Part shown: piece by piece, positions 7,862-52,472 of the stretch | Position numbering within the stretch: position 1 is the first letter of the stretch | Layout: each line of letters begins with the position of its first letter | Assembly (NCBI RefSeq): GCF_002854065.1 | Contig: NZ_CP024147.1 | Origin: Escherichia coli | GTDB lineage: Bacteria; Pseudomonadota; Gammaproteobacteria; Enterobacterales; Enterobacteriaceae | DNA length: 64,000 nt | Direction: 5' to 3' (one strand) | Notes under the pieces: generated by a model | Databases searched by the model: none | What the model was told of the DNA's origin: nothing | The model's input: only the letters and a program-made list of their open reading frames with translations | Position numbers and translations under genes: made by a program

Positions 7862-8989
7862 TCACGCCATTGTCCCAATCGTCTTCCTGAATCGCAGCAG
7901 TGCGATGGTGAAAAACGCGCCGCCAATTGCCATCAGCGTCAGGAACTGCGGCCAGACGATTTCGAATCCGGCACCCCGGTAGAGAATGGCCTGCGCGAGG
8001 CTAACAAAGTGTGTCGTCGGCATGGTCAGCATAATGTCCTGCACCATCTGCGGCATACTTTCGCGCGGCGTGGAGCCACCGGAAAGCATTTGCAGCGGCA
8101 GCAGCACCAGAATCACCAGCAGCCCCAGTTGCGGCATTGAACGCGCTATCGTCCCCATAAAAATGCCGATTGACGTGGTGGCAAACAGACTGAGCGCCAC
8201 GCCCAGCATAAACAGCGGGATCGAGCCTTCAATCGGTACGCCCAGCACGCCTTTCACCATCAGCACCAGCGATAATCCCGATACCACCAGCACCACCAGC
8301 CCCATCGACCAGACCTTAGCCATCATGATCTCAAACGGCGTTATCGGCATCACCAGTAAATGTTCCACCGTGCCGTGTTCACGCTCGCGGATCAGCGCCG
8401 ATCCGGTCAATACAATCGCCAGCATGGTAATGTTGTTGATGATTGCCATCACCCCGCCAAACCACGCGGGATCAAGGTTCGGGTTAAAGCGCATCCGGGT
8501 TTCCAGCGATACCAACGGTTCGCTGTTATCGCGGTAGCGCGCGACAAAGCTGTTCACTTCACCGTTGATAATATTCTGGATATACCCGTTGCCGGTAAAT
8601 GCCTGGCTCATGCGCGTGGCATCGACGTTCACCTGAATATCTGGCTGGCGTCCAGCGAGGACATCACGCTGAAAATTAGGCGGAATATTTATCGCGAAGG
8701 TATAGCGTCCGGCGTCCAGTCCGGCATCCATCTCATCGGCGGTGATCATCTCCGGTGGCAAAAACCACGGGCGATAGAAGCTGTTAACGATCCGATTCGA
8801 TAACTGCGATTGATCCATATCGGCAATGGCGATCGGTGCCAGGTTCAACGATCCTGGCGTAACGGTCGCTGACGAATACACCGACACCGTAAACGAGAAG
8901 ACAATCAATGTCAGCATCGCTTTATCACCGAGTAGACTGCGCAACTCTTTGATACCCAGATTAAAAATATTGCGTAAATGGCGCATCAT
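7862..8989 (-). CDS. yhhJ: ABC-2 family transporter permease YhhJ
   Basis: Polytopic permease; start MMRHLRNIF with ATG overlapping rbbA stop (ATGA); the longer ORF to 9070 is judged an upstream extension. Confidence 0.85.
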
Positions 8990-11721
8990 CCCTCCTGTTT
9001 TTTCAACAGCAGGATGCTTAAGCCCATCACCAGCGGTATGGCTATCAGCAACGGGATAAAAAGTTGCCACAAATCAGTCAGATCCAGCGCTTTCGAGAAC
9101 GTCCCGCGGGCGATAGTCAGAAAATGACTGGTCGGGTAAACCTCGCCGATCCAACGTCCCGGCCCTTCCAGCGAAGCTACCGGATCGATCATCCCGGAAA
9201 ACTGTGTCGCCGGGATCAACGTGATAATCGCCGTACCGAAAATGGCGGCAATCTGGCTTTTCATAAAGGTGGAGATCAGCAGCCCCATTCCGGTGGCGAT
9301 GATGATATACAGCAGCGCCGCCAGGGTGAGCGTCAGGAAACTGCCTTTATGCGGTACGCCAAACACAAACACCGACAGGCCGCAGAGCAGGAAAAAGTTC
9401 AGCATCCCCAGCGCGATGTACGGTAGCTGTTTGCCAAGCAAAAATTCGCTACGGGTGGTGGGAGTCACGTAAAGGTTGATAATCGACCCTAGTTCTTTTT
9501 CCCGCACCACGCTAAGGGCGCTTAGCATTGACGGGATCATCATCAGCAGAAGCGGGATCACCGCCGGAACAATCGCTGGCAGGCTTTTTACGTCCGGGTT
9601 ATAGCGATAGCGCGTCTCAATATTCATCAGCACGCTTTGGCTGGCGGGTGTGGATTGTCGGCTTGCCACATCCTGAAGCCAACTCTGGTGCATTGCCTGC
9701 ACGTAACCTTTTACCGTTTCGGCACGACTGGGCATCGCTCCGTCGATCCAGACGCCGAGTTCCACAGGCGTACCACGCGCGATATCACGCCCGAAATTTG
9801 GAGGGATCTCAATTGCCACCGTGATATCGCCCGCACGCATCCGACGATCAAGCTCGTCATAACTGGTAAGCGGCGGCTGTTCGATAAAGTAACGGGAACC
9901 GGAGAGGTTGAGCGTCCACGCCTGGCTACTGACGGTCTGGTCGCGGTCAAGCACCGCAAAGCGCAGGTTTTCCACATCCATACTGATGCCGTAACCCATT
10001 ATCAGCATCAGGATCACCGTTCCCATCAGCGCCAGCGTCGAACGGACCGGATCGCGGCGCAATTCCAGTGCTTCGCGCCGGCTGTAGCTAAACAGACGGC
10101 GCAGGCTAAATCCCTGGCGCGGCGCGTGTGTAGCATCGTGTATCACGGGAGGCGCTTCGGCTTCGTTGCTCTGTCCTGCCGCTTCCTGCAAATAGGCGAT
10201 AAATGCCTCTTCCAGACTGGCGGCTCCGCGTTTCTCAACCAGTTCCTGCGGTGTACCGCTGGCGAGCACTTTTCCGGCGTGCATCAGTGAGATACGGTCG
10301 CAGCGTTCCGCTTCGTTCATAAAGTGGGTGGAGATGAAGATAGTCACTTTGTCCTGGCGCGAGAGATCGACCATCAACTGCCAGAACATATCCCTCGCCA
10401 CCGGATCGACGCCAGAAGTAGGTTCATCGAGGATTAACATTTCCGGGCGATGAATCACCGCCACCGCCAGCGAAAGCCGCTGGCGAATGCCGAGCGGCAA
10501 TGACTCCGGCAGAACATCTTCAACGTCGTTGAGTTTAAAACGCTCGCTCATTTCAGCCACTCGCGCGGGAATTTCCGCTTCCGGGATGTGAAACAAACGG
10601 GCATGTAACTCAAGGTTTTGCCGCACGGTGAGTTCGTTATAGAGCGAAAACGCCTGCGACATATAGCCCACCCGACGGCGGGTATCGATATCTTTTGGAT
10701 CAACCGGTTGCCCAAATAGCCACGCCTCACCTTCGCTGGCGGGCAGCAGTCCGGTAAGCATTTTCATGGTGGTGGATTTACCGCAGCCATTCGAACCAAG
10801 AAAACCAAAAATCTCCCCGCGTGGAATGCGGAAATTAACGTGATCAACGGCAACGAAGGAACCAAAACGCATGGTCAGATCGCGCGCTTCGATGGCAATC
10901 TCTGCGTTTTCAGGTTGATACGGTGGGATCACTACCGCCTGATGCGCCTGGCGTTGTGCTTGCGGTAACAGATTAATAAATGCTTCTTCCAGCGTGGCGC
11001 TTTGCGTTTGCTGCCGCAGCTCTTCGGCGCTGCCAGTTGCCAGCACTTCTCCGGCATTCATCGCTACCAGCCAGTCGAAGCGTTCGGCCTCTTCCATATA
11101 GGCGGTGGCGACCAGCACGCTCATATTGCTCTGCCGCTGGCGAATACTGTCGATCAGATCCCAGAACTGGGCGCGGGAGAGCGGGTCAACCCCCGTTGTT
11201 GGCTCATCAAGAATCAACAGTTCCGGGTCGTGGATTAACGCACAGCACAGCCCCAGTTTTTGCTTCATCCCGCCGGAGAGTTTCCCTGCCGGACGATCGC
11301 GAAACGGTGCTAACCCGGTGCTGGTCAGCAGCTCATTAATTCGGACTTCCCGCTCCGCTTTATCGTGACCGAACAAGCGAGCGAAAAAATCGACATTTTC
11401 ATACACCGATAAGGTGTGGTAGAGATTTTTGCCCAGCCCCTGCGGCATCCAGGCGATGCGCGGGCAGACGTCGCGGCGATGCTTCGGGTCGCGCATATCG
11501 CCGCCCAGCACCATCACATTGCCCTGTTCAATGACGCGGGCACCGGAAATCAACGACAACAAGCTCGACTTCCCGACGCCATCCGGACCAATCAGCCCGA
11601 CCATACAGCGGGCCGGAATATCGAGTGTGATATTGTTCAGCGCAACGGTTTTTCCATAATGCTGGCTCACGCCCGCCAGTTGCGCGACAGGCGGGACGGG
11701 AACCAGTTCCAGATGCGTCAT
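8986..11721 (-). CDS. rbbA: ribosome-associated ATPase RbbA (tandem ABC ATPase domains fused to ABC-2 permease)
   Basis: 911 aa; two Walker A motifs ([18 protein letters not shown]), two signature motifs, C-terminal membrane domain. Confidence 0.9.
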
Positions 11722-33861: not shown

Positions 33862-36474
33862 ATGATGCTCAGTAGCGAGTTTTTGCGCTTTTTTCAAACC
33901 TTAAACACAACAGAAGTCCCCAGTAATGTCAGGAAAATAGCGAATCTTGTGTGGGATAACCTAGATGATATAACCCCATTGGGCACTTCGCAGGGTCAGC
34001 GAGTCAGGCGCATTGTCTCTCTGGCACAGTCTGCATGGGATGCCCTCAGTACAGAAGTACAGCCACTACCAGAGCAGACCGCTGAACGCGTCTCCACGTT
34101 TAGTCGGCTGAGAAAGATATCTGTTGGACCATTTAGAGGGTTTGCAAAGCAAGAAGAATTTGATCTGGATTCACGTCTAGTGCTGATTTACGGCCCCAAT
34201 GGTACTGGGAAGTCAAGTTTCTGCGAAGCGCTTGAATATACATTACTGGGCAATGTGGCTGAGGCCGAAAGCAAGCGTTTCCGGAATCAAAACGACTATT
34301 TTAAAAATGCACATGTCAATCGGTTTTCTGTTCCAGAGATAATTGGTGTCGGAGATCATGGGCAGGATGTGTCGATTGAGAATAACGAAGCACAGTATCG
34401 CTTTTGCTTTGTTGAAAAAAATCGTATCGACAACTTTTCAAGAATCGCGGCTCTGGTCCCAACAAGGCAGACTGAACTTATCTCAACACTATTCGGGCTA
34501 GATAGTTTTAATGATTTTGTGCGAAATTTTACATCAGATATTGATGCCAGATACATCGATCTAACAGGCGTAAAAGCAGGTCAGTTGGCAGAAAAGCGCA
34601 AGTCTCTTCTGGCTGCACAGCAGCAATTGGCGACAGGTCAGGCTGCCCTGGAAGGGTTGGCATCAGAGGAACAGACACTGGCTTCTGTTTATCGTGAAGG
34701 CCTGTCTTACCAGCAGATGCTAGCTGAGTTAAAAGGGGATGAACAAAATATCGGAACCATCCGACAGCTTGAAACAGAGTTACAAACGCCACTTCCGAAT
34801 CAGAGTAGCCTGACATCTGCTATTTTGAACGATATAAGTAGCGCTGTTGAAACGGCACTTATAGATCTGGAAAGCAAGCAGAAGCAACTGGCAGAGGCAA
34901 GTCAGCAGGTTTCATATAAAAATTTATTTGAAGCAGTTGTCCAGTTACAGGGTACCAGCCCGGAACAATGCCCTGCATGCCATACCCCTCTTCAGCAAAC
35001 CGCCAAAAACCCCTACAGCCATGCCTGTGATGAATTGCTAAAGCTTGAGTTTCTGTCGACATTACAGGGAGAAATAACTCAGCTGGAAAAATTAATTGGC
35101 CAGTTGATGTACAGTGTTTCACAAGTAATCGGCACATGCTGTCAGTTTTTGCCACATGACAATGCTCTTGAAGTATTCCGAAATGAAAATGGCATCACTT
35201 TATGGCGTAATCTGCGGCAGCAAACAGGAGATGGCATAACTCCCTGGGCTCAGCTTGAAAAACAGGTGTGGCATCTGGAGGGAGAAGATAAAAAAATAGA
35301 GGAAGCAACTAAATTGCGAGAATCCCGTCAGCGGGATCTTGCGAGAATGCGTGAATCTGATCGCCAGATAACGATTTTGCAGACAAGAAGAGATACGATA
35401 GAAAAAACCATCTCTGCGGCTCAGTTGTTGATTGGCAACTTTGATACTGAAAACAGGCAGCTAATTGAAGAAGTTGCTCACGAAGAAGACATTGTAAGGA
35501 AAAACAAAGCAATTTCAGAAGCGTATTCCCGGTTCGTTTTACAGCTGAACGCCTATAAAGAGGGATTACCTCAGAGACTTGTAGCGAATCTTGGGGATCA
35601 CATTGTCACTCTCTACAACGCATTTAACCGTAATGACCCCCCGGGAGAAAAGCTAGCAGGTATCAAACTACCTCTGCTGCAGAATCAGCGACTGGAAGTA
35701 GCGTTTCAGAATAATCCAACGCAACTATTCGATGCCCTGCATGTACTTAGTGAGGGGCATGTACGCTGTATAGGGCTGGCTATTTTGTTGGCAAAAAACA
35801 TTAATGAACAGTGTCCACTTTTGATATTTGATGACCCGGTCAATGCTATTGATGACGATCACAGAGAATCGATTCGGAGAACGTTGTTTGAAGATGCTTT
35901 CTTTGCTGAAAAACAAATCATTCTGGCCTGCCATGGAGAGGAATTCTTCAAAGACATCCAGAATTTATTGCCAGCGCCGGTTGCCGCACAGTCCAAGACT
36001 TTCAGCTTCTTACCGCGTCTTGACGAATTGCATATCCGCGTAGATTTTAACTGCGCTCCCAGGAACTATATTATTTCTGCACGAGGGCATTATGAGCGTA
36101 ATGAGATTCGGGAGGCGCTTGCAAAATGCAGACAGTCACTTGAATCGTTGATGAAGGGGAGAGTCTGGCGATATGTAAATAAATATGGTGATGGTAATCT
36201 TAGTCTCAAGCTAAGGTCAGCAACGGCACCTATTGAGTTACGTAACTTGTCGGATCAATTGAAGAAACAGATCAATAAAGCTGAGTTCCGTGACCAAAAT
36301 AAAAACGCCGTATTCACACCAATTGATGTGTTAACTGGGCTAAGTGGAGAATCACGAGAATGGCGCTATCTAAATAAAGGTACGCATGAGGAAGACGGCA
36401 GGGCTGAGTTTGATCGAGCAACAGTAGAAACCATGATTTCTGCCCTTGAGGCGCTCGATCAGGCTGTGAGTTAA
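33862..36474 (+). CDS. SMC/Rad50/RloC-like ABC ATPase with central CxxC hook and uncharacterised C-terminal domain
   Basis: 870 aa; Walker A LIYGPNGTGKSS, about 500 aa Q/E/L-rich coiled-coil with EQCPACH midway, signature-like LSEGHVRCIGLA, Walker B/D-loop LLIFDDPVNAIDDDH, H-loop ILACHGEEF, then about 170 aa of unknown function. Confidence 0.65.
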   Translation: MMLSSEFLRFFQTLNTTEVPSNVRKIANLVWDNLDDITPLGTSQGQRVRRIVSLAQSAWDALSTEVQPLPEQTAERVSTFSRLRKISVGPFRGFAKQEEFDLDSRLVLIYGPNGTGKSSFCEALEYTLLGNVAEAESKRFRNQNDYFKNAHVNRFSVPEIIGVGDHGQDVSIENNEAQYRFCFVEKNRIDNFSRIAALVPTRQTELISTLFGLDSFNDFVRNFTSDIDARYIDLTGVKAGQLAEKRKSLLAAQQQLATGQAALEGLASEEQTLASVYREGLSYQQMLAELKGDEQNIGTIRQLETELQTPLPNQSSLTSAILNDISSAVETALIDLESKQKQLAEASQQVSYKNLFEAVVQLQGTSPEQCPACHTPLQQTAKNPYSHACDELLKLEFLSTLQGEITQLEKLIGQLMYSVSQVIGTCCQFLPHDNALEVFRNENGITLWRNLRQQTGDGITPWAQLEKQVWHLEGEDKKIEEATKLRESRQRDLARMRESDRQITILQTRRDTIEKTISAAQLLIGNFDTENRQLIEEVAHEEDIVRKNKAISEAYSRFVLQLNAYKEGLPQRLVANLGDHIVTLYNAFNRNDPPGEKLAGIKLPLLQNQRLEVAFQNNPTQLFDALHVLSEGHVRCIGLAILLAKNINEQCPLLIFDDPVNAIDDDHRESIRRTLFEDAFFAEKQIILACHGEEFFKDIQNLLPAPVAAQSKTFSFLPRLDELHIRVDFNCAPRNYIISARGHYERNEIREALAKCRQSLESLMKGRVWRYVNKYGDGNLSLKLRSATAPIELRNLSDQLKKQINKAEFRDQNKNAVFTPIDVLTGLSGESREWRYLNKGTHEEDGRAEFDRATVETMISALEALDQAVS

Positions 36475-37393: not shown

Positions 37394-37747
37394 ATGATGT
37401 CGCTTACTTCCCTACAACTCTTTAAGAATCTGTCTGATGAAACACGTCTGGGTATTGTTCTCATACTCAGAACTATGGGGGAGTTGTGCGTATGTGATCT
37501 TTGCACTGCACTTGATCAATCACAGCCTAAGATCTCCCGGCATCTGGCTATGTTGCGAGAAAGTGGGATTTTGCTTGATAGTAAACACGGTAAATGGGTT
37601 CATTACCGGTTATCCCCACACATTCCTTCATGGGCTGCACAGATTATTGAGCAGGCCTGGTTAAGCCAACAGGACGATCTTCAGGCCATCGCCCGTAAAC
37701 TGGCTTCAGTCAACTGCACTAACAGCAGTAAGGCTATTTGTATTTAA
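37394..37747 (+). CDS. arsR: arsenite-responsive repressor ArsR
   Basis: HTH plus As(III)-binding ELCVCDLC motif. Confidence 0.9.
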   Translation: MMSLTSLQLFKNLSDETRLGIVLILRTMGELCVCDLCTALDQSQPKISRHLAMLRESGILLDSKHGKWVHYRLSPHIPSWAAQIIEQAWLSQQDDLQAIARKLASVNCTNSSKAICI

Positions 37748-37787
37748 AAATTTGCCTGAATATATATGATTTCCCACATATGAGGTA

Positions 37788-38156
37788 TTGAGAATGAAAA
37801 CGCTAGCGGTATTCGACCCGGCAATGTGTTGTAGCACCGGTGTCTGCGGTACTGATGTCGATCAGGCTCTGGTTGATTTTTCCGCGGATGTGCAATGGCT
37901 GAAACAACGAGGTGTTCAGGTAGATCGTTTCAATCTGGCACAGCAACCGATGAGCTTTGTCCAGAACGAGAAAGTTAAAGCATTTATTGAGGCTTCTGGT
38001 GCGGAAGGGCTGCCATTACTGTTACTGGATGGCGAAACAGTGATGGCCGGGCGTTATCCGAAACGGGCTGAACTTGCACGGTGGTTTGGAATTCCGCTGG
38101 AGAAAGTAGGATTAGCGCCTTCAGGCTGCTGCGGTGGTAATACTTCTTGTTGTTAA
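37788..38156 (+). CDS. arsD: arsenic metallochaperone/regulator ArsD
   Basis: N-terminal MCCSTGVCG (Cys12/13/18) and C-terminal CCGGNTSCC. Confidence 0.9.
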   Translation: MRMKTLAVFDPAMCCSTGVCGTDVDQALVDFSADVQWLKQRGVQVDRFNLAQQPMSFVQNEKVKAFIEASGAEGLPLLLLDGETVMAGRYPKRAELARWFGIPLEKVGLAPSGCCGGNTSCC

Positions 38157-38173
38157 GTATGTCAGGAGGACAT

Positions 38174-39925
38174 ATGAAATTCTTACAGAACATCCCCCCT
38201 TATCTGTTTTTTACTGGTAAAGGAGGCGTTGGTAAAACCTCTATTTCCTGCGCCACGGCGATCCGTCTGGCAGAACAGGGTAAACGAGTGCTGCTGGTCA
38301 GTACCGATCCGGCCTCAAACGTAGGCCAGGTCTTTGGCCAGGTTATTGGCAATACTATTCAGCCAATAGCCACTGTTCCTGGATTGTCGGCACTTGAGAT
38401 TGATCCTCAGGCCGCTGCGCAACAGTACCGGGCCAGAATCGTTGACCCTATTAAAGGTGTCCTGCCTGATGACGTCGTTAGCAGCATCAACGAACAACTG
38501 TCTGGTGCATGCACAACAGAGATTGCGGCTTTTGATGAGTTTACCGGATTACTGACAGACGCCTCTTTGCTGACCCAGTTTGACCATATCATCTTTGATA
38601 CCGCGCCAACCGGCCATACTATTCGCCTTCTCCAGTTGCCAGGCGCCTGGAGCAGCTTTATTGACAGCAATCCCGAGGGCGCATCCTGCCTCGGCCCGAT
38701 GGCGGGGCTGGAAAAACAGCGTGAACAGTATGCCCATGCCGTTGAAGCACTGTCCGACCCAGCGCGTACCCGCCTGGTTTTAGTTGCCAGACTGCAAAAA
38801 TCCACCCTGCAAGAAGTCGCCCGAACTCATTTAGAACTCGCCGCAATTGGCCTTAAAAATCAGTACTTGGTCATTAATGGCGTTCTGCCCAAAACTGAAG
38901 CGGCAAACGATACACTGGCTGCGGCTATATGGGACCGTGAACAGGAGGCGCTGGCCAATCTTCCTTCTGACCTTTCCGGTCTGCCAACTGACACGTTATT
39001 CCTCCAACCACTCAATATGGTCGGCGTGGCTGCATTAAGTGGGCTTCTCTCCTCTCAGCCTGAGGCAGCATCATCTTCTGAAGAATACATTCAGCAACGA
39101 CCTGAAATTCCGTCGCTCTCAGCGTTAGTCGATGATATTGCCCGTAACGAACATGGTCTGATAATGCTAATGGGCAAAGGCGGTGTGGGGAAAACCACGA
39201 TGGCGGCAGCCATTGCCGTCAGACTGGCCGAAATGGGATTTGATGTCCATCTGACCACCTCAGATCCAGCAGCACACCTCAGCACAACCCTGAACGGTAG
39301 CCTTAACAATCTGCAGGTCAGTAGAATCGATCCTCACGAGGAAACAGAACGCTATCGTCAGCATGTTCTTGATACCAAGGGTGGAGAACTGGATGAAGCG
39401 GGTAAACGCCTGCTGGAAGAAGATTTACGCTCTCCTTGTACCGAAGAGATTGCGGTCTTCCAGGCCTTTTCACGGGTGATTCGTGAAGCGGGTAAGCGCT
39501 TCGTGGTCATGGATACGGCACCCACCGGGCATACCCTACTGCTGCTGGATGCCACCGGGGCGTATCACCGCGAAATTGCTAAGAAAATGGGCGATAAAGG
39601 CCATTTCACCACGCCAATGATGCAGCTTCAGGACCCGGAGCGAACCAAAGTGTTACTGGTCACGCTGCCGGAAACCACGCCCGTGCTTGAGGCGGCAAAT
39701 TTGCAGGCCGACCTTGAACGCGCAGGGATTCATCCCTGGGGCTGGATTATCAATAACAGCCTTTCCATTGCGGATACCCGTTCGCCGCTGCTTCGTCTGC
39801 GGGCGCAACAGGAACTTCCGCAGATCGAGAGTGTTAAACTCCAGCATGCCAGTCGCGTAGCTCTTGTTCCTGTACTGGCGTCAGAACCGACCGGCATCGA
39901 CAAACTCAAACAACTCGCTGGTTAA
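38174..39925 (+). CDS. arsA: arsenite pump ATPase ArsA
   Basis: Start [23 protein letters not shown]; duplicated P-loops (GKGGVGKTS / GKGGVGKTT) and DTAPTGH motifs. Confidence 0.9.
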
Positions 39926-39972
39926 TTATTGTCATTACTCGGGGCAGCTTTGCTGCCCTTTCGGGAGGTTAT

Positions 39973-41262
39973 ATGTTACTGGCAGGAGCCATTTTTATCC
40001 TGACCATCGTGTTGGTTATCTGGCAGCCAAAGGGATTAGGCATTGGCTGGAGCGCCACGCTGGGTGCCGTACTGGCTCTGGCATCGGGTGTGATTCATAT
40101 CGCCGATATTCCGGTGGTGTGGAATATCGTCTGGAACGCCACGGCCACCTTTATTGCCGTCATTATCATCAGTCTGTTGCTGGATGAGTCCGGCTTTTTT
40201 GAATGGGCTGCACTGCACGTTTCCCGCTGGGGCAATGGGCGTGGACGTCTGCTATTTACCTATATTGTTCTGCTCGGCGCGGCGGTGGCGGCATTGTTTG
40301 CCAACGATGGCGCGGCGTTAATTCTGACGCCGATCGTTATCGCCATGCTACTGGCGCTGGGATTCAGTAAAAGCACCACGCTGGCTTTCGTGATGGCCGC
40401 AGGGTTTATTGCCGATACCGCCAGCTTGCCACTTATCGTATCGAACCTGGTCAATATCGTTTCGGCTGATTTCTTCAAACTGGGATTCACGGAGTATGCG
40501 TCAGTTATGGTGCCGGTGGATATTGCCGCCATTGTCGCCACGCTGGTGATGCTGCATCTTTTTTTCCGCAAAGATATCCCGCCCACTTATGAGCTGGCGC
40601 GACTGAAAGAACCCGCAAAAGCCATCAAAGATCCTGCGACGTTCAGAACCGGCTGGGTTGTGCTCCTCCTTCTGCTGGTCGGTTTTTTTGTCCTTGAGCC
40701 GATGGGGATCCCTGTGAGTGCGATTGCGGCAGTGGGGGCGGCAATCCTGTTTGCGGTGGCCAAAAAAGGTCATGGTATTAACACCGGTAAAGTGCTGCGC
40801 GGCGCGCCCTGGCAGATCGTGATCTTCTCACTGGGGATGTATCTGGTGGTATACGGGTTGCGTAACGCCGGTCTGACGGATTATCTCTCTGACGTGCTGA
40901 ACGTACTGGCAGATAAAGGACTGTGGGCCGCGACGCTGGGGACAGGATTCCTGACTGCATTCCTCTCTTCTATCATGAACAATATGCCGACCGTACTGGT
41001 TGGCGCACTGTCGATTGATGGCAGCACCGCGACCGGCGTTATCAAAGAAGCGATGATTTATGCCAACGTCATTGGCTGCGATCTGGGGCCGAAAATCACC
41101 CCTATTGGTAGCCTGGCGACACTGCTCTGGCTGCACGTGCTTTCACAGAAGAATATGACAATCTCGTGGGGATACTACTTCCGCACCGGGATTATCATGA
41201 CCCTGCCTGTGCTGTTTGTAACGCTGGCTGCGCTGGCGCTACGTCTCTCTGTCACTTTGTAA
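39973..41262 (+). CDS. arsB: arsenite efflux permease ArsB
   Basis: 429-aa polytopic membrane protein between arsA and arsC. Confidence 0.9.
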
Positions 41263-41274
41263 TGAGATTCTGAT

Positions 41275-41700
41275 ATGAGCAACATCACTATTTATCACAA
41301 CCCAGCCTGCGGCACCTCGCGTAATACGCTGGAGATGATCCGCAACAGCGGTACCGAGCCGACCATTATTCTTTACCTTGAGAACCCACCTTCGAGGGAT
41401 GAATTGGTCAAACTCATTGCCGATATGGGTATTTCAGTACGAGCGCTGCTGCGTAAAAACGTTGAGCCTTACGAGCAACTGGGTCTTGCAGAAGATAAAT
41501 TTACTGACGATCAGCTCATCGACTTTATGTTGCAACACCCAATTCTGATTAACCGTCCGATCGTGGTTACGCCGCTGGGAACCAGACTGTGCCGTCCTTC
41601 TGAAGTGGTTCTGGATATCCTGCAGGATGCGCAGAAAGGGGCTTTCGCTAAGGAAGACGGTGAAAAGGTCGTTGATGAAGCAGGAAAACGGCTGAAATAA
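41275..41700 (+). CDS. arsC: arsenate reductase ArsC (glutaredoxin-coupled type)
   Basis: 141 aa, catalytic HNPACGTSRN motif. Confidence 0.9.
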   Translation: MSNITIYHNPACGTSRNTLEMIRNSGTEPTIILYLENPPSRDELVKLIADMGISVRALLRKNVEPYEQLGLAEDKFTDDQLIDFMLQHPILINRPIVVTPLGTRLCRPSEVVLDILQDAQKGAFAKEDGEKVVDEAGKRLK

Positions 41701-43784: not shown

Positions 43785-43810
43785 ATGAAGGGGGCTAATG
43801 CCCCCTTCAT
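43785..43810. terminator. 11-bp perfect palindrome, near-copy of the hairpin at 41703
   Basis: ATGAAGGGGGC taat GCCCCCTTCAT between convergent ModE-like gene and arsA2. Confidence 0.55.
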
Positions 43811-43812
43811 TA

Positions 43813-45570
43813 TTACTTCGCCATTTCTTCCAGCAGGTCAATACCAACCGGCTCTTCGCTCTGTAGCGCTGTTAATGCAATACGCTTTGCATACTGCTCT
43901 TCCACATCAGAGATGAGAGGCAGCTCGCGGTTAGCTCTGGTCTTCAGGAAAGGTGAAGACGGCTCAGCAGCTGCCAGGCTGTTATTCACAACCCATGCCC
44001 ACGGCTCAATGCCAGCCCGACGCAGATCCTGCTGCAGGTTAGCGGCTTCCAGTACAGGTGTCGTTTCGGCAAGCGTCACGATAATCACCTTCGTCTTCTC
44101 CGGGTCCTGCAATTGCATCATTGGCGTCATCACATGGTCATGTGTTTGCCCCATCTGGCGCACCATTTCCCGGTGATAGGCTCCAGTCGCATCCAGTAGC
44201 AGAAGTGTGTGACCCGTTGGCGCGGTGTCCATAATGACAAAATGATCGTCTGCCTCTTTGATTATCCGCGAGAATGCCTGGAAGACGGCGATCTCTTCAG
44301 TACATGGTGAGCGGAGATCTTCTTCCAGCACCGCCAGCCCCTCAGCGTCTAATCCTTTGCCCTGATTCTCCAGTACAAAACGGCGATAACGCTCTGTCTC
44401 CACCTTCGGATCGATACGGCTGACCTGCAGATTTGGCAGCGAGCCATCCAGCGTGTAAGACAGATGTGCTGCCGGATCGGACGTGGTCAGATGGACTTTA
44501 TGACCGCGTTTTGCCAGCGATACCGCGACCGATGCTGCAACAGTCGTTTTGCCCACGCCGCCTTTCCCCATCGTCATTACCAGCCCTTTGCCTGTCAGAC
44601 TGAGTTCATCCACTAACGAGGAAAGTTTCGGTAAATCCAGAGCATTTAGCGTTGTATTGGAGAGAGACAGTGGCGCTTTGCTCTCTGTTAATAACTCTCG
44701 CAGGGCTTCCAGACCGACCAGATTAAATGGCTTCAGAGACAGCTGCGAGCGGGGAAGATTAACCAGATTATCAGGCATTGCCTGTAATGCTTTTTCTTCC
44801 CGAGCCAGAATACTTTGCGCCAGTGGATCATTTTCACCGGCAAACGGTGGCAGCACACCATTAATGGCAAGGTGTTGATGCTGCAAACCAATAGCAGAAA
44901 GCTCATCGTGCGTATGAGAAACCTCTTTCAGCGTTGAAGCCTGAGCTCGGGCAACCAGCACTAAGCGTGTGAGAGCTGCGTCGGACAGCGCTTTAACCGC
45001 ATCGGAGTACTGGTGCTGTTGTTTCTCAAGCCCTACCAGAGGTCCAAGGTTTGCAGCGGCATCAGGGTTCGCTTCGAGATAACCGCTCCAGGCTCCCGGC
45101 AATTCAAGCATGCGGATGGTGTGACCGGTTGGCGCGGTATCAAATACGATATGGTCATATTTTCCCCGCAGCTCATGATTGGTCAGCAGACCAGTAAACT
45201 CATCAAACGCAGCGATTTCCGTGGTGCATGAGCCGGAAAGCTGCTCTTCAATGCTGCTGACCACATCGGCTGGCATCAGCCCGCGAACAGGGTCGAGCAC
45301 ACGGTCACGATAGGCTTGCGCTGCAGCCATCGGATCAACTTCCATCGCGGCAAGATTTTCTACAGTACTGATATCTGTGATTCGGTGGCCGATAGTCTGG
45401 CTAAATACCTGGCCGACATTGGAAGCCGGATCGGTACTCACCAGAAGCGTTCTCTTACCCTGATCGGCCAGCCATACTGCAGTAGCACAGGCCAGGGATG
45501 TCTTACCCACTCCACCTTTACCAGTGAAGAAGATGAACGGGGGAATGTCTTTTAAAAATGGCATATTCAT
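43813..45570 (-). CDS. arsA: second arsenite pump ATPase ArsA paralogue
   Basis: Start [25 protein letters not shown]; duplicated P-loops and DTAPTGH motifs; diverged from the copy at 38174. Confidence 0.85.
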   Translation of the reverse strand: MNMPFLKDIPPFIFFTGKGGVGKTSLACATAVWLADQGKRTLLVSTDPASNVGQVFSQTIGHRITDISTVENLAAMEVDPMAAAQAYRDRVLDPVRGLMPADVVSSIEEQLSGSCTTEIAAFDEFTGLLTNHELRGKYDHIVFDTAPTGHTIRMLELPGAWSGYLEANPDAAANLGPLVGLEKQQHQYSDAVKALSDAALTRLVLVARAQASTLKEVSHTHDELSAIGLQHQHLAINGVLPPFAGENDPLAQSILAREEKALQAMPDNLVNLPRSQLSLKPFNLVGLEALRELLTESKAPLSLSNTTLNALDLPKLSSLVDELSLTGKGLVMTMGKGGVGKTTVAASVAVSLAKRGHKVHLTTSDPAAHLSYTLDGSLPNLQVSRIDPKVETERYRRFVLENQGKGLDAEGLAVLEEDLRSPCTEEIAVFQAFSRIIKEADDHFVIMDTAPTGHTLLLLDATGAYHREMVRQMGQTHDHVMTPMMQLQDPEKTKVIIVTLAETTPVLEAANLQQDLRRAGIEPWAWVVNNSLAAAEPSSPFLKTRANRELPLISDVEEQYAKRIALTALQSEEPVGIDLLEEMAK

Positions 45571-45590
45571 CAGTGATAGCTCCTCTGGAA

Positions 45591-45953
45591 TTAAGGCATA
45601 CGTGGAATGCTGCAGCAACGCGGTTGCGTACTGTCTTCACTCCAGTCCTGAGTTAGCGGAATATCTGCCCAACGGGCGATATCTTCACGAGTCGGCAGTT
45701 TGCCTGCCATCACCAGCTTGCCGTCGAGCAAGGTGACAGGGAGGGATTCCATCCCTGATGTGTTCATAAACTCTTTGATTACAGGGGTATTCAGGAACTG
45801 CTGCGGGTTTTTCGCAAGGCTGTAGCGCTGAATATCAACGCCATTCTTTTTCGCCCATTCGGCGCTGGCATTCCATTTGACGGCTTCGTCGCTCACCACA
45901 ACGCTGCTGGTTGCGCAGCAGCCTGCTGCTTCAAAGATCTCAATTTTTGACAT
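45591..45953 (-). CDS. arsD: divergent ArsD-like metallochaperone
   Basis: 120 aa; vicinal Cys pair (AAGCCATS) at the ArsD Cys12/13 position but lacks Cys18; C-terminal CC. Confidence 0.7.
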   Translation of the reverse strand: MSKIEIFEAAGCCATSSVVVSDEAVKWNASAEWAKKNGVDIQRYSLAKNPQQFLNTPVIKEFMNTSGMESLPVTLLDGKLVMAGKLPTREDIARWADIPLTQDWSEDSTQPRCCSIPRMP

Positions 45954-46028
45954 GGATTGTTTACCTCAGTGTTTAGTCATTTGGCTTTACACTGAGGTAA
46001 ACGAAGGTGGTGGGAAAAAGATGCGCGA

Positions 46029-46586
46029 TTAATTCATTTTTTTGTGGCAGCAGACAAAAGATGTGTCATCCGCCTCAATCTGGCAGAGTTCTGTCATCGT
46101 CTCTTTCAGGTGTTTTCTGGCCCGAAGTAGTCGGGATTTAAACGCTGTAAGCGTGATTCCCCATTCATCGGCCAGGGACTGCTGGGGACGCCGGTTAAGG
46201 TCGGACTCTTCAATCAACCACCGCTCATCTTCGGGTAAAGCCTGTAATGTTTCAGGCAGGCAAATATCCAGTGTTGAGATTGCATCAAGGGATGCGTCTG
46301 TTAATAGGGCATCTTCTTCCAGCTCAACAAACGCCCTGGTGGTTCGGTACTCATCAATCAGCAGATTCCTTGCTACCCGATACAACCAGGCTCGCGGATT
46401 TTCCATCTCACAAAAAATGTCTGAATGGGCTCGGGCACGCAGGAAAAGGTCTTGCAGAAGGTCTGCTGCTTTTTCGCTATCGCCTGTCTTCGATATCAGA
46501 AAGCGAGAAAATTCGCCTTCATGCTGCCGCCAGAACACGCTCATACAGCTGTTGAATGCTGTTATGTCACTCATACTAACCTTCAA
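46029..46586 (-). CDS. sigma-70 family (ECF-like) RNA polymerase sigma factor with Cys-rich C-terminal tail
   Basis: Region 2-like [13 protein letters not shown]...[15 protein letters not shown] and region 4-like HTH; C-terminus [16 protein letters not shown]. Confidence 0.6.
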
Positions 46587-47293
46587 ATTTTGCTCTGATT
46601 AACCCGTCGGGAAAGTTCTTCTGCAGACTCTTTTCGTTCACTGTAGCGATCGACAAGATAGGCAGAATTTGCCCGGGTCAACAATGTAAACTTCATCAAT
46701 TCTTCCATCACATCCACGATGCGGTCGTAATATGGTGACGGTTTCATACGTCCATCGTCATCAAACTCCTGCCAGGCTTTTGCTACCGAGGACTGGTTCG
46801 GAATAGTGATCATTCTCATCCAACGACCAAGCACGCGCATCTGGTTGACTGTGTTGAATGACTGGGAACCTCCACACACTTGCATAACAGCCAGAGTTTT
46901 TCCCTGAGAAGGACGAACAGCACCTTCAGATAATGGTATCCAGTCAATTTGTGCCTTCATAATACCAGTCATCGCTCCGTGTCGTTCCGGAGAGCACCAC
47001 ACCATTCCTTCAGACCAGCGGACCAGTTCACGCAACTCCATAACTTTTGGATGTGACTCCGGTGCATCATCAGGAAGTGGAAGGCCAGATGGATTAAAAA
47101 TGCGGACTTCTGCGCCCATCGCAGTTAACAACCGACCAGCTTCCTCTGTCGCCAGTCGACTGTATGAGCGCTCACGAACTGAGCCATAAAGCATTAGTAT
47201 ACGAGGGGGGTGAGATATTGTCGGTATCCCCATTTTTTGCTCAGTTATTGCAGCATCAAATAAATCAGGAACTATATTATTTAGCTTATTCAT
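46583..47293 (-). CDS. arsH: ArsH, NADPH-dependent FMN reductase family
   Basis: 236 aa with [12 protein letters not shown] flavodoxin-like motif. Confidence 0.85.
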
Positions 47294-47391
47294 TTTTTAT
47301 TTTCCCTATAGATTCGGGATCTTAGTAGGATGGATTCAGACGGTTCGATGCAGCTTTCGTCAATCATGACAGTTATGAGTTTTTCGGTTAC

Positions 47392-47715
47392 TTATCCATT
47401 TTTGCCAGCGGGTTCCGTAACATCTGTTTTACTGTTTACACAGCACTCTTCACGTAAGAATTCGATGATAGCTTCCAGTATTTCGTATTGAGAGACGCAC
47501 ATGAGCGTTCGACTCTCCCGGTTTTGTGTGACGAGTCCTACTGATACTAAGGCTGAAATATGATGACTTAACGTTGATGAGGGAATGCCAAGCTGCTTTT
47601 GCAATTCACCTACAGGCAAACCTTGTTCTCCAGCTTTTACAAGATGTTTGAATATGAACAAACGGGTCGGGTGACCCAGCTCTTTTAGTGCTTTAGCTAC
47701 TTCTTCCAATTGCAT
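47392..47715 (-). CDS. arsR: ArsR/SmtB-family repressor (second ars regulator) with C-terminal vicinal cysteines
   Basis: 107 aa, HTH LPVGELQKQLGIPSSTLSHHISAL, C-terminal EECCVN. Confidence 0.75.
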   Translation of the reverse strand: MQLEEVAKALKELGHPTRLFIFKHLVKAGEQGLPVGELQKQLGIPSSTLSHHISALVSVGLVTQNRESRTLMCVSQYEILEAIIEFLREECCVNSKTDVTEPAGKNG

Positions 47716-47820
47716 GTGACAACCCTCTGTCTAATGATATTTCGATAATACCAGAAATATCTTGACCAGAATTATATTTCGATTATTCTAGAAATGTAGA
47801 TTTTGTCAAGAGGGTTTAGT

Positions 47821-48954
47821 ATGAATAGTTGGATTTCTATGCTGCAAGATGCCGCAGAGATGTTTTTGTTTTTGGCCGTCGAGCTATCTTTGCTGTTTAT
47901 TGTCATCAGTGCCGGTGTGAGCCTGATAAGGCAAAAGGTCCCGGACCATAAAATCCAGCAATTGTTGGGGGCGAAAAAAGGAAAAGGCTACCTGCTGGCC
48001 TCGTTGTTGGGAGCCGTTACCCCTTTCTGTAGTTGCTCAACAATTCCAATGCTACGAGGGTTGTTGTCGGCGAAAGCAGGGTTTGGTCCGACACTCACTT
48101 TTTTGTTTGTTTCACCGTTGCTTAATCCCATTATCGTGGGGTTAATGTGGGTTACCTTTGGCTGGAAAGTAACTTTGTTGTACGCGATCATCGCTGCCGG
48201 TGTCTCAGTCCTTGCCAGTATCGTATTGGATTTACTAGGATTTGAACGTCATATTGTTGATCACAAAAACTCAGCATCAAGTGGTTGCGCCACCAAATGT
48301 GATGATTCCGAAGCTTCGGTAAAAACGTCGGCGGGTTCCAGTTGTTGCAGCACTAGCTCGACTCAATTGCCTGTAAAAACGAGTTGCTGTACTTCATCAG
48401 CGAACCCCATAATTAACTTAAGGACGGTAAAGAACGAGCAGAACGTATCAACGTGTTGTTCATCAATATCATCTGAACAACCAGCTGTTAGCTGTTGCAG
48501 CAGCGAGAATCTGGGCAATGTGAATCTCACACCGAATACCACCTCTGGCCCAATAAAGTTAGCTATGAAAGATGCCTTACAGCAGTTTAAGGATGTTCTG
48601 CCTTATCTTTTGTTAGGTGTATTAATAGGTTCATTTATTTATGGCTTTATCCCTTCAGAGTGGATTGCAGCTCATGCCGGAGCAGATAATCCCTTAGCCA
48701 TACCGCTGAGTGCAGTTGTTGGTATTCCGTTGTATATACGCGCAGAGGCAGTGATACCACTTGCATCAGTGCTGATGACTAAAGGAATGGGCCTGGGGGC
48801 ATTAATGGCCTTGATAATCGGTAGTGCTGGAGCGAGTTTGACAGAAGTAATACTGCTTAAATCAATGTTCAGAATGCCTATGATAGTCGCTTTTCTGACA
48901 GTTATCTTAGGTATGGCAATTCTAATGGGTTATCTGACTCAATTCTTGTTTTAA
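47821..48954 (+). CDS. arsP: ArsP-type permease with extended Cys/Ser-rich loop
   Basis: TPFCSCS motif in TM region; ATG at 47821 after GAGGG; large S/T/C loop with four CC doublets. Confidence 0.75.
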   Translation: MNSWISMLQDAAEMFLFLAVELSLLFIVISAGVSLIRQKVPDHKIQQLLGAKKGKGYLLASLLGAVTPFCSCSTIPMLRGLLSAKAGFGPTLTFLFVSPLLNPIIVGLMWVTFGWKVTLLYAIIAAGVSVLASIVLDLLGFERHIVDHKNSASSGCATKCDDSEASVKTSAGSSCCSTSSTQLPVKTSCCTSSANPIINLRTVKNEQNVSTCCSSISSEQPAVSCCSSENLGNVNLTPNTTSGPIKLAMKDALQQFKDVLPYLLLGVLIGSFIYGFIPSEWIAAHAGADNPLAIPLSAVVGIPLYIRAEAVIPLASVLMTKGMGLGALMALIIGSAGASLTEVILLKSMFRMPMIVAFLTVILGMAILMGYLTQFLF

Positions 48955-49412: not shown

Positions 49413-50756
49413 ATGATCTTCTTTAGAGTTGAGCTAAAAGGAGTCGAGGCGATGGCCAGGATAATCCAATCAGCCGGTATCAATCATGGTGCAACAGCAA
49501 AAATAATTTCCGATTCAATAGATTATAACTCCGGCATACATATTGCAGGATTACCAACGCTATATAATAAAGATGGTCATTTTGTAGAAATTGTAAATTT
49601 GTGGTTTTTGGATTTGATAACCGTTAAGAGGCTAGAGGATATTAGTTCTTCAGCCAGAGCAATTCTTCGTTACTGGTCTTTTCTAGAACGAGAAGAGCTT
49701 ACATGGAGTCATTTTCCTCCAGTGAAACGCCTGAAACCCACATACCTTTTCCGTAGCAACGACTTGTTAAAAGCAGTTAAAGAGGGAAGACTGGCGTACT
49801 CAACTGCAAATACTTATATGGGACATTTAGTTCAGTTTTACATCTGGGCAATTGAAAATCATCATCTTGTCATATCAAGTGAAAAAGAAGCTCCCTTTAC
49901 TATTGAGTTTGTTAAGCGTAACAATAGAGGCCTGCTGGCACATCTTCGCCCAATGATCAGTGTGCAAACGAGCGATTTACGTATCCGCGTTCCTAAAGTT
50001 ACAAACGCCGAGATCCAGTCATTAACTCCTTTAACTCAAGATCATCTTTCCTTACTATCATTCAACTTAAGCCATCAATCTGTTGAATTTATGTTGATGA
50101 CTTTACTGGCCTGTAAAAGTGGTTTGAGACTTCGTGAAGCATGTAGCCTCACAATTGAGGCTTTATCTCAAGCTTTGCCCGCCAACGAATTAAAGCTACG
50201 CTATATGATCAACATTTGGCCCCACAATGGTGTTGATACAAAATTTAGAAAAAAAAGAAATATTGAAGTCCCCTGGCCTCTACTAAACGCATTACAACGC
50301 TACTCGCTGTCAGAAAGAAGGCAAAAAAGACTTTCAAAATTACAGACAAAAATAGCCATTCCCTCAATTTCGGAAAAGATTAAAGAATCCCACAATAAAG
50401 CATCTCGATTCGAACCTCTTTTTATCAGTCAGCAAGGAAATTGTATCCAGCCCGAAGTTCTAAATGCAAGGTGGGTTGCATTTAGAAATGAACTTGCCAA
50501 AAAAGAACCTAGTTTTCGTTATCGTTTCCACGACCTCCGATGTACCTATGCCACATACAGACTTCAAGACCTGCTGGATAGCAATCTCTCAGAAGGGGAT
50601 GCCCTAGACTGTCTTATGGGATGGATGGGACACAATAACGAAAGAACCACATTTAAATATATCCGCTACTTGAAGAAAAACGAGATGCTCAAGTGTGCTT
50701 TTTCGCTATTAGACTCAGTGATGGATAATGCAATAAGGGATAATTTAAATGACTGA
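49413..50756 (+). CDS. tyrosine site-specific recombinase (first of trio)
   Basis: R...HxxR...H...Y signature: LRLREACSL, FHDLRCTYATY, GHNNERTTFKYIRY. Confidence 0.8.
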   Translation: MIFFRVELKGVEAMARIIQSAGINHGATAKIISDSIDYNSGIHIAGLPTLYNKDGHFVEIVNLWFLDLITVKRLEDISSSARAILRYWSFLEREELTWSHFPPVKRLKPTYLFRSNDLLKAVKEGRLAYSTANTYMGHLVQFYIWAIENHHLVISSEKEAPFTIEFVKRNNRGLLAHLRPMISVQTSDLRIRVPKVTNAEIQSLTPLTQDHLSLLSFNLSHQSVEFMLMTLLACKSGLRLREACSLTIEALSQALPANELKLRYMINIWPHNGVDTKFRKKRNIEVPWPLLNALQRYSLSERRQKRLSKLQTKIAIPSISEKIKESHNKASRFEPLFISQQGNCIQPEVLNARWVAFRNELAKKEPSFRYRFHDLRCTYATYRLQDLLDSNLSEGDALDCLMGWMGHNNERTTFKYIRYLKKNEMLKCAFSLLDSVMDNAIRDNLND

Positions 50757-52472
50757 TAAAATCCCTCAATCCAGACTCGGCCATGAAATACTACTGGAGG
50801 TTACAGATGGTGGAAATCGTTCTAAAACACTAGATTTCAATCGCTACAACTATTTATACTTCCCCACTCGAAATAAAATAAATAGAGGTCACAGTACATT
50901 TCAAGATAGATCAGTCAGCGCTGAATCGTTATATGTAGCATTCAGAGATTCAGACTACTCATCAGCCACAAAATATTATCTTTTTGAATACCTCAGGCAA
51001 TATATTGTATTTTGCGACAAGTGTCACCATCCCATTTTCACTAATGAATCCGTGCAGGCCTACTGTGATCTCCTTATTTATAAAAATAAATCAGGAATTA
51101 TTTTGAATAGTACTTATACTGCTATCATTAGTGCCACAAAACGCTTATTCGTTATGCTTGACTTACCTGGGCGGTGGTTTGATGAATTACCAACCTTAGG
51201 AAAGTCACAGGCACAGCCCTATAAGGCCTATAGTGACAATGATTTAAAAAAACTACTCCCTTTACTGAGGATATTTTTCAAGCAAATTTCCAATAAGTTC
51301 CTACAAGACCCCGCTTTGTATCTTTCTCAAGGTAAGAATGAAACTGATATGTTTTTCAGGTGGAATGGTAAAATATATGCAGTATATGGTAGTGTCGGGC
51401 AACTAATGGCTTCTGCTGTATATCTACTGTCTTACTATACATGGGCAAACACAAATACATTACTTTCTCTTGAAAGACCAGACATATGTGAAAGTAATGT
51501 AAATGGAGAATGGTACCAAATGCCAGCATTTAAGCGCCGGGCATTTAGAGTCATCACTATTCAGATCGGTGCCCACGACCAGATCAACATTCCAAAGTAT
51601 TCAATGGAATTTTTCAACCAACTTCTAAAAGTCTCAAAAGCTATTTCAGTTGAAAGTAACTTACTTTTTCAGTCCGGTTCATGTAATCGCATCACCCCAT
51701 TATCAGCGGTCCACTTACAAAATTTCAACAGTTTTCTCAAAAAGAACTTTAGATTAACTGATGATAAAGGACTTAGCTATCACCTGTAATATCGAGATTT
51801 CGTGCTACTGGTAGTCAATTTACGCAATTGCATTACTCTCATACACATAGTGCATCGCTATTAGGAAATTCACCGAAAACAACTCGCAAGCATTATTCAG
51901 AAGGGAATGAATACCAAAATCAGTCAATGCTCCAGGACTCTGTCTCTGTTTTTGCAGACAAGGCGGTAAATGGCGGGAATATAGAGACGTCTAAAAAAAG
52001 AATAAAAAGTGAACTTAATGTTGAGATTTTAACATATGAAAGTATGCTTAAAATGAAATCTCCACCAATGCGACAGGCCCACGGCAGTTACTGTAAAGAT
52101 CCATTCGGGGAGCAGGCTAAAAAGTTCTTGCTACGCGCCCAACGTCACGATTTGCTTTCTACAGAAAAATTTGCTTGCTCAGATCTACTGATGTGTTTTT
52201 CCTGTCCTCATCAAGTTGTGATAGCTGAACCTACTGATATTTGGTGTTTGCTGAGTTTTAAAGAATGCATAGAAGAGAGTATTTACAAGCATGTCAATCA
52301 CACTCATTTCCATAATAACTATGACTCTGTGTTGTCGGCAATTGAAAAAATTTTAATGAGTATTGATAAAAAAATACTTTCAAGTGCAACTCAAAAATTT
52401 CTCGATGAGGGTCCTCACCCTTTATGGAGAGACCAGTCATTTCTATATCCATATAGCAATAAGGATACATGA
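50749..52472 (+). pseudogene. tyrosine recombinase (second of trio) interrupted by a frameshift within the catalytic region
   Basis: ORF 50749-51789 ends ...DDKGLSYHL-stop; the overlapping frame continues ...LSPVISRFRATGSQFTQLHYSHTHSASLLGNSPKTTRKHY, carrying the box II and Tyr motifs; frames overlap only in 51777-51789. Confidence 0.6.

Follow-up and report, generated by a model that had tools for sequence, protein, structure and literature searches.

An ECF sigma factor on the SigZ side of ECF238, linked to arsenic genes and to a predicted promoter of its own, in a second ars cluster of Escherichia coli

A 64,000-nucleotide stretch of Escherichia coli DNA (contig NZ_CP024147.1, here called the window) carries, at positions 43813-47715, an arsenic-resistance cluster that encodes an extracytoplasmic function (ECF, group 4) sigma factor between its arsenic genes. 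The open-reading frames (ORFs) of this cluster run on the minus strand in the order arsR2, arsH, sigma gene, arsD2, arsA2, all five are intact, and the cluster is called the second because a complete arsRDABC operon lies at about 37394-41700 in the same window. By its sequence, the sigma factor belongs to an arsenic-linked, previously undescribed branch on the SigZ side of group ECF238, and comparison across distant bacteria predicts for it a promoter in front of arsD2-arsA2. Our overall reading, which we hold with a little better than even confidence, is that this is an arsenic-dedicated SigZ/ECF238-family sigma factor that works without an anti-sigma factor, by the stepwise mechanism proposed below. 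The gene order had been reported in an earlier reading of the DNA made without database searches (the sequence-only reading) and is borne out by the ORF coordinates and by NCBIfam matches to ArsH, ArsA, and ArsR/SmtB.

Domain searches and structure prediction agree with the earlier description of ECF-like region 2 and region 4 segments in the sigma protein. Pfam places Sigma70_r2 at residues 20-84 (3.2e-10) and Sigma70_r4_2 at residues 109-160 (2.8e-8), the protein scores 60.4 bits against TIGR02937 (cut-off 42.9), and the AlphaFold2 (AF2) model, with a predicted local distance difference test (pLDDT) score of 86.4, contains two helical domains, sigma-2 and sigma-4. The top Foldseek matches in the PDB are all ECF sigma factors (SigL, SigH, AlgU, SigW, and sigmaE), with TM-scores of about 0.35, a low value that reflects the free orientation between the domains alone. 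The best NCBIfam profile is that of SigZ (TIGR02959), at 131.9 bits against a curated cut-off of 168.65. The same profile is the best for six distant clade members, two of which pass (L022 with 171.7 bits and L025 with 177.2) and four of which score 141-152. Since the window protein falls below the equivalog cut-off, it is treated as a member of a divergent SigZ-family branch and not as an equivalog. SigZ has been grouped with CorE2 in ECF238, which is marked by a ~20-residue Cys-containing C-terminal extension and the absence of an anti-sigma factor (PMC7826278). The window protein has a short Cys-bearing extension of this kind (C164-x10-C175-C176-HKKMN), and no conserved anti-sigma-like gene was found beside the sigma gene, its neighbors in 34 loci being varying ars genes. 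The CxC linker of CorE-type proteins is missing, with a single Cys (LDICLPE) at this place in the window protein and in all 26 aligned clade members, and so is the CorE-type tail of six Cys in 28-38 residues; the last 18 residues hold three Cys here, and about 40% of the clade have only one. Because both the CxC motif and the six tail Cys are missing, the protein is not CorE-like in the strict sense.

The sigma gene (46029-46574, minus strand, 181 amino acids) most likely starts at ATG 46574, judging from the sequence around the two candidate starts. The ATG has a GAAGG Shine-Dalgarno sequence 5 nt upstream and agrees with the MSD or MPD N-termini of homologs as well as with the 181-amino acid annotation in relatives; the other candidate, TTG 46586, would give 185 amino acids. 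With the ATG start, the gap to the arsH stop would be 8 nt, and the 185-residue protein overlapping arsH by 4 nt, as described in the sequence-only reading, stems from the mechanical choice of the TTG by the ORF program.

To survey the neighborhood of such genes, one genome per species was scanned, which gave 80 loci whose flanks were searched with 18 ars-related proteins. A homolog reaching the C-terminal tail, with 34-92% identity to the window protein, is present in 34 of these loci, from Beta-, Gamma-, and Zetaproteobacteria, one Terriglobia, and one Desulfobulbus. Within 8 kb of the sigma gene, ars genes occur in 30 of the 34: canonical ones in 18 (acr3, arsC, arsDA, arsH, arsB, arsJ/gapdh, arsR), and an ArsP_1 permease and/or a thioredoxin-like ArsE in a further 12. 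Two of the four loci without ars genes are on truncated contigs. None of the 43 control loci with other ECF sigma factors has ars genes, apart from one glyoxalase-family match to the ArsI query (L078). Given ars genes in 30 of 34 diverse clade loci and in essentially none of the 43 controls, the linkage between this sigma factor and arsenic genes is real and ancient. The sequence-only reading would have been contradicted by homologs that are never linked to ars genes; down to about 35% identity, they overwhelmingly are linked. In Cedecea, for example, a 59%-identical homolog heads a sigma-arsD-arsA unit next to arsRBC, and a 37%-identical homolog elsewhere sits between arsR-arsI-gapdh-arsJ-arsC-acr3 and arsP-arsE. 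A profile search of 1.84 billion cluster representatives returned 513 clusters at E ≤ 1e-30.

A shared element, TGCATCC-TTTT-N10-TCGTCT, follows the sigma stop codon across loci, and a weight matrix was built from 15 such sites. In the window, the matrix finds a single strong site on the minus strand at 46024-45999 (GCATCTTTTTcccaccaccTTCGTTT, score 26.1), between the sigma gene and arsD2-arsA2, which is the only one scoring at least 15 in 64 kb. The next-best scores, 14.0 and 13.8, are at chance level, shuffled sequence giving 0.7 matches at 13 or above. The element is laid out as ECF promoters canonically are, its TGCATC-like -35 hexamer and its CGT -10 element being separated by 16 nt. With the threshold set at 17, the clade loci (554 kb) contain 41 matches and the control loci (674 kb) contain 5, three of which adjoin the semi-related Cys-rich ECF sigma factors of L042-L044. 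At scores of 20 or more in non-duplicate loci, 28 of 35 matches precede arsP, arsE, arsD, or arsH by 15-205 nt in the same orientation. Loci outside the training set are included here: in L022, L025, L027, L028, L029, and L045, a distance of 1-2 kb separates the target from the sigma gene, and in L032, the target is located upstream of the sigma gene. The sites form a divergent pair in L019 and L020. In Marinobacter xestospongiae, a site at L035 2160-2185 (score 20.5) lies 77 nt upstream of arsH-acr3, so in some genomes the regulon would reach beyond arsP/arsE and arsD/arsA. The commonest target operon includes a thioredoxin-like protein of the MTH895/ArsE family.

That the motif tracks both the target genes and the presence of the sigma clade is the signature of a cognate promoter, and from this pattern, we strongly infer that the TGCATCC motif is the promoter of this sigma factor. 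The predicted regulon in the window consists of arsD2-arsA2 only, as the weight matrix found no site at the permease gene, arsR2, arsH, the first arsRDABC operon, or the arsN/TauE/ModE-like genes. With regard to autoregulation, neither the window nor most loci have a motif ahead of the sigma gene, the exceptions being L032, in which the sigma gene is downstream of arsP-arsE, and L039/L043.

Three loci of the survey have arrangements of separate interest. One (L008) has two sigma-arsP-arsE units (1097-2852 and 8001-9927) in opposite orientation around a shared arsR-arsI-gapdh-arsJ-arsC-acr3 core; its second sigma factor has 196 amino acids, and the motif before the corresponding arsP is weaker (score 18.4). 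On Citrobacter plasmid pRHBSTW-00903_2 (L089 7001-8945), a cassette of a 38.6%-identical sigma gene, a permease gene, and a thioredoxin-family gene, with a motif at 7640, is flanked by IS110 copies with no other ars genes nearby, so that these three genes form a mobile unit in their own right. On the Cedecea neteri chromosome (L003 7230-7900), the sigma-arsD-arsA island abuts tandem tRNA-like repeats (GGTTCGAATCCTTCCCCC, several times), an array that looks like a tRNA-gene integration site with partial duplications.

Upstream of the cluster, a consensus scan finds a sigma-70-type promoter at 47782-47809 on the minus strand (TTGACA, 16-nt spacer, AATAAT; 11 of 12 consensus matches), which from its position would drive an arsR2-arsH-sigma transcript. 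A repeat search finds two 26-nt direct repeats (AATnATATTTCGATnAT...) at 47733-47795, 85% identical and 37 nt apart (copies 47733-47758 and 47770-47795). They lie between arsR2 and a divergent permease gene (47821-48954, plus strand), overlapping both sigma-70-like promoters, and are candidate operators, probably of ArsR2, under whose control the permease gene probably stands as well. The sigma gene is thus situated behind a sigma-70 promoter and operator-like repeats, immediately after arsH. Among distant loci, at least 11 have the sigma gene less than 60 nt behind a co-oriented acr3, arsA, or arsJ. This usual position as the last gene of an ArsR-type operon suggests a cascade, and the recurrent design would be an ArsR-controlled operon ending in the sigma gene, then an ECF promoter, and then a further ars unit. 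With the sigma gene under ArsR2 control, a part of the arsenic response would need no direct sensing by the sigma factor.

A further layer of control may lie at the start of arsD2, where the minus strand has a hairpin with a 14-bp stem at 45959-46002 (RNA folding energy -22.4 kcal/mol, z -4.97, with none of 200 shuffles as good), also detected as an inverted repeat with arms of 13-14 bp and a 16-nt gap. On the 5′ side, the stem runs across the -10 element of the ECF promoter and the point where transcription is predicted to start; on the 3′ side, it takes in the Shine-Dalgarno sequence of arsD2, GAGG. The Cedecea, L004/L005, and Klebsiella versions all have the hairpin, a single C-to-U change among them preserving a G-U pair, and its overlap with the promoter occurs in the arsD-linked lineages. 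From this layout, we infer that the arsD2 ribosome-binding site would be masked in read-through transcripts and not in sigma-initiated ones: RNA reading through from upstream would hold both arms and bury the site, and transcripts from the ECF promoter would begin inside or after the 5′ arm and leave it open. Other roles for the element were considered and set aside. As an intrinsic terminator, it has no U-run after the hairpin and was not listed by the terminator scan. A protein operator is unlikely, the half-site being unrelated to the repeats of the arsR2 region, and the C-to-T change in one lineage, which keeps RNA pairing and breaks the DNA palindrome, also weighs against it. The sole Rfam match is a plant microRNA precursor at 30.1 bits (gathering score 62), a generic hairpin match.

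The window sigma factor contains six Cys (C10, C55, C105, C164, C175, and C176) and has Ser at position 124, where the wider clade has Cys; this Ser is shared with the enterobacterial plasmid relatives. An alignment of 26 diverse members shows no exception at C55, C105, and C164, and conservation of 90% or more at C10 and C124. This five-Cys signature marks the top ~60 of the clusters at 50% identity, and the next tier retains only C105 and C164. The C-terminal CC pair is found in about 60% of clade members and is otherwise replaced by SD, EG, SG, or similar; members without CC all keep C124, and members without C124 all keep CC. The presence of CC does not track the type of target gene, as CC-bearing and CC-lacking forms both adjoin arsP-arsE. 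The earlier emphasis on a cysteine-rich tail is therefore only partly right: the protein does end in a CC-bearing tail, but the most conserved feature is the set C55, C105, and C164. From the AF2 secondary-structure layout and general knowledge of ECF sigma factors, C55 falls in the loop that joins helices 2 and 3 of sigma-2, a loop that reads the -10 element in other ECF sigma factors. The positions of C105, C124, and C164 fall in sigma-4 and at the C-terminal end of that domain.

The neighboring products also depart from the usual three-Cys arsenic sites. In ArsR2, the Cys32/34/37 site of ArsR1 is missing, and only a vicinal Cys pair at the C terminus (EECCVN) is present. ArsD2 reads AAGCCATSSVVV, keeping Cys12-Cys13 with Val at the Cys18 position, so that the canonical Cys12-Cys13-Cys18 As(III) site is not complete, whereas ArsD1 reads AMCCSTGVCG. 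ArsA2 has the equivalents of Cys113 and Cys422, with Asn at the Cys172 position. SpArsR, which also lacks the third Cys, responds to methylarsenite and not to arsenite (PMC11868830), and ArsH and ArsP-type permeases are established as handling trivalent organoarsenicals (cited in PMC12504007). Two-Cys forms of ArsR2, ArsD2, and ArsA2 together with arsH and an ArsP-type permease suggest that the module may be tuned to organoarsenicals, either methylarsenite or aromatic arsenicals.

The module is widespread. Its 3.9 kb occur at 93-95% identity in many enterobacterial plasmids, with 1188 PLSDB records at 80% coverage or more, and tblastn with the sigma protein matches 1796 plasmids, 1410 of them over the full length and 1219 of them from Klebsiella, in which the common variant is 76.8% identical. 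About 1800 of the 72,556 PLSDB plasmids thus have the sigma gene or a remnant. The chromosome of the wastewater strain E. coli CUWW06 matches the window at 99.9% identity, and most of the module is present in 36 of 5426 complete E. coli genomes. The gene is annotated everywhere just as a sigma-70 family RNA polymerase sigma factor. Its ratio of nonsynonymous to synonymous substitution rates (dN/dS) is 0.12-0.16 against relatives. Given this ratio and the 1188 plasmids that carry the module, the sigma gene is under purifying selection and is not a chance ORF.

In the mechanism that we propose, the sigma factor would be made as the third gene product of an ArsR2-repressed, sigma-70-driven arsR2-arsH-sigma transcript and would direct RNA polymerase to one promoter, at 46024-45999, immediately downstream of its own stop codon. 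This promoter would switch on arsD2-arsA2, the chaperone and the ATPase energizing arsenite efflux, on transcripts freed of the masking hairpin. A second, post-translational input would come from the conserved Cys (C55, C105/C124/C164, and the CC pair) binding As(III) or a trivalent organoarsenical. Such direct sensing by the sigma factor is speculative, though plausible, and we place it somewhat short of an even chance. In its fullest form, which we advance still more tentatively, this would be the first directly metalloid-sensing sigma factor: As(III) or methylarsenite on C10/C55, C105/C124/C164, and the CC tail would shift the domains and license the private promoter, and together with ArsR, a two-input cascade would separate inorganic and organic responses, which would fit the two-Cys variants of ArsR2, ArsD2, and ArsA2.

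Several observations weigh against this proposal. The CC pair is absent in about 40% of the clade, position 124 is Ser here, no set of Cys is universal beyond C55, C105, and C164, and the tail is a low-confidence part of the AF2 model (pLDDT 52-56). The promoter is assigned by comparison only, and its -35 element, TGCATCC, is without the AAC core typical of most ECF promoters; in the hairpin model, the transcription start is positioned solely by reference to other ECF promoters. Moreover, ArsR acting on the synthesis of the sigma factor could be enough to explain the arsenic responsiveness. A pure cascade would take this last point as the whole explanation, with a sigma factor that is active once made, all responsiveness due to derepression of ArsR2, and Cys that are structural, for Zn(II) or for the fold. 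Such a cascade would accommodate the repeated placement of the sigma gene at the end of ArsR-type operons, which is already an arsenic input, the variation in Cys sets with loss of CC and here of C124, and the broader SigZ tier, in which C105 and C164 alone are kept, as would suit a structural pair. However, five near-invariant Cys over both domains are unusual for ECF sigma factors, such Cys are regulatory in CorE, CorE2, and OrbS (PMC4937300, PMC9023288), and an unregulated sigma factor adds little over simple co-transcription of its targets, and we consider a pure cascade rather unlikely, though a serious contender. The conserved Cys might instead form disulfides or lose a metal under thiol depletion, placing the logic of RsrA/SigR on board the sigma factor and turning on thiol-related ars functions (ArsE with ArsP, or ArsD/ArsA). 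Arsenicals deplete cellular thiols, the commonest target operon includes the thioredoxin-like ArsE-family protein, and sequence alone cannot separate redox from arsenic chemistry at Cys; nevertheless, the genomic association is specifically with ars genes and not with general oxidative-stress genes, and the targets are arsenic efflux components, which makes a thiol or redox sensor improbable.

The decay of the module in many plasmids must also be set against its importance. In the commonest Klebsiella plasmid version (L090 7003-8753, K. pneumoniae pKp848CTX), arsA2 is frameshifted near codon 367, with the sigma gene, arsD2, the ECF promoter, and the hairpin intact. In-frame sigma::arsA deletion fusions that have lost arsD2 and most of arsA2 are widespread in Klebsiella, E. 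coli, Enterobacter, and Yersinia and are annotated as arsenical pump-driving ATPase (P0073, P0075, P0056, and P0064; plasmid matches H45-H49). In the commonest form, sigma residues 1-38 run directly into the last ~75-95 residues of ArsA2 (KAAD/PEKTK at the joint); other fusions break later in the sigma gene. The module is therefore dispensable in those hosts. Frameshift and fusions would be expected if sigma-arsD2-arsA2 had arrived in enterobacteria on a mobile arsenic island and lay unused, the first arsRDABC operon doing all the work, but the five intact genes in the window, the low dN/dS of the sigma gene, the conservation of promoter and hairpin across lineages at 59-95% protein identity, and the full-length sigma gene retained in 1410 plasmids make such a relic very improbable. 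This erosion tempers the importance of the arsenic-dedicated sigma factor in clinical-plasmid hosts and not its interest as a regulatory design.

The remaining ars gene calls of the cluster, all on the minus strand, are as follows. The ArsR/SmtB repressor gene arsR2 (47392-47715) matches NF033788 with 63.2 bits, and arsH (46583-47293), of the organoarsenical oxidase/NADPH-FMN reductase family, matches TIGR02690 with 403.6 bits (cut-off 292). The ArsD-family metallochaperone gene arsD2 (45591-45953) reaches 84.4 bits with NF033727, just under the cut-off of 90. Its product is 40% identical to ArsD1, so the earlier description of it as a divergent ArsD is apt for its sequence and not for its orientation, arsD2 being on the same strand as the rest. 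An intact ArsA ATPase, 62% identical to ArsA1, is encoded by arsA2 (43813-45570; TIGR04291, 944.1 bits), which most likely starts at ATG 45570, with an alternative at 45618. A GC-rich, terminator-like hairpin of 11 pairs at 43785-43810, just 3′ of the arsA2 stop, is the likely end of the operon, tentatively so, since a minus-strand T-run is not evident. The divergent permease is of the ArsP_1 family with a Cys/Ser-rich loop; its NCBIfam matches, of the SO_0444/SaoE type, are below cut-off, and its counterpart in a relative is annotated as a permease.

The surroundings of the cluster offer further observations. In the closest plasmid relative, from Citrobacter arsenatis (L001 606-5410), a molybdopterin oxidoreductase and a DsrO-like iron-sulfur protein adjoin arsRDABC, and where this plasmid has oxidoreductase genes, the window has an 870-amino acid ORF at 33862-36474. 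Three successive plus-strand ORFs of 447, 346, and 214 amino acids with low GC (0.38-0.42) adjoin the ars island at 49413-52472, and the sequence HDLRCTYATY in the first resembles tyrosine recombinases, which hints that the island may be an integrative element.

The sequence-only reading knew of no sigma factor in canonical ars operons, and our search of the literature on ECF sigma factors and arsenic, arsP, or ars operons likewise found no publication describing one as part of an ars operon. Two papers briefly list the gene as a neighbor of arsH, on pESI and a KPC plasmid (PMC12504007, PMC6286996), and a review of metal-responsive ECF sigma factors leaves arsenic unmentioned (PMC6851896). A Cys-tailed, anti-sigma-independent, metal-sensing sigma factor is already a known kind (CorE/CorE2, ECF238; PMC7826278, PMC8999054, PMC4937300); what is new is the arsenic link, the Cys signature, the promoter, and the cascade architecture. 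In textbook accounts, arsenic resistance is regulated solely by ArsR repressors. The present results suggest a further tier, a sigma factor with a private promoter, which recurs in sources as distant as deep-sea Zetaproteobacteria and Klebsiella plasmids. For SigZ, a branch of ECF238 that is functionally blank, this provides a predicted regulon (arsP-arsE, arsD-arsA, arsH-acr3) and a promoter consensus, and a compact, orthogonal sigma/promoter pair is on offer for arsenic biosensors. Should the Cys indeed bind arsenicals, on-board metal sensing by sigma factors would extend from Cu, Cd, Zn, and Fe to a metalloid.

Among known systems, CorE and CorE2 of Myxococcus xanthus (former ECF44, now in ECF238) are alike in being ECF sigma factors without an anti-sigma factor that control metal-resistance genes, and CorE2, like the window sigma factor, is not autoregulated (PMC4937300, PMC8999054). 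Their sensing of Cu or Cd/Zn depends on six tail Cys and on an essential CxC motif in the linker (PMC4937300, PMC8999054), whereas the window protein has three Cys in about 18 residues, a single linker Cys (C105), and the clade-specific C10, C55, and C124 positions inside the core domains, and its genomic context is one of arsenic genes. SigZ of Bacillus subtilis (TIGR02959, ECF238 subgroup 9), the best profile for the window protein and every clade member tested, shares the lack of a known anti-sigma factor and has noted C-terminal Cys (PMC7826278); it has no known function or regulon, and no reported arsenic link or promoter was found for it in the literature. OrbS of Burkholderia cenocepacia (ECF243) also senses its metal, iron, through C-terminal Cys without an anti-sigma factor (PMC9023288), but belongs to a different ECF group with an unrelated Cys pattern and is inhibited by iron rather than activating resistance genes. 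The ArsR/SmtB repressors (R773 ArsR, AfArsR, CgArsR, and SpArsR), the known regulators through which ars operons respond to arsenic, sense either As(III) through three Cys or methylarsenite, MAs(III), through two (PMC11868830). These repressors are released from DNA and act alone in published descriptions, whereas here ArsR2 probably controls the synthesis of a sigma factor, so that the window system adds a polymerase subunit as a second tier.

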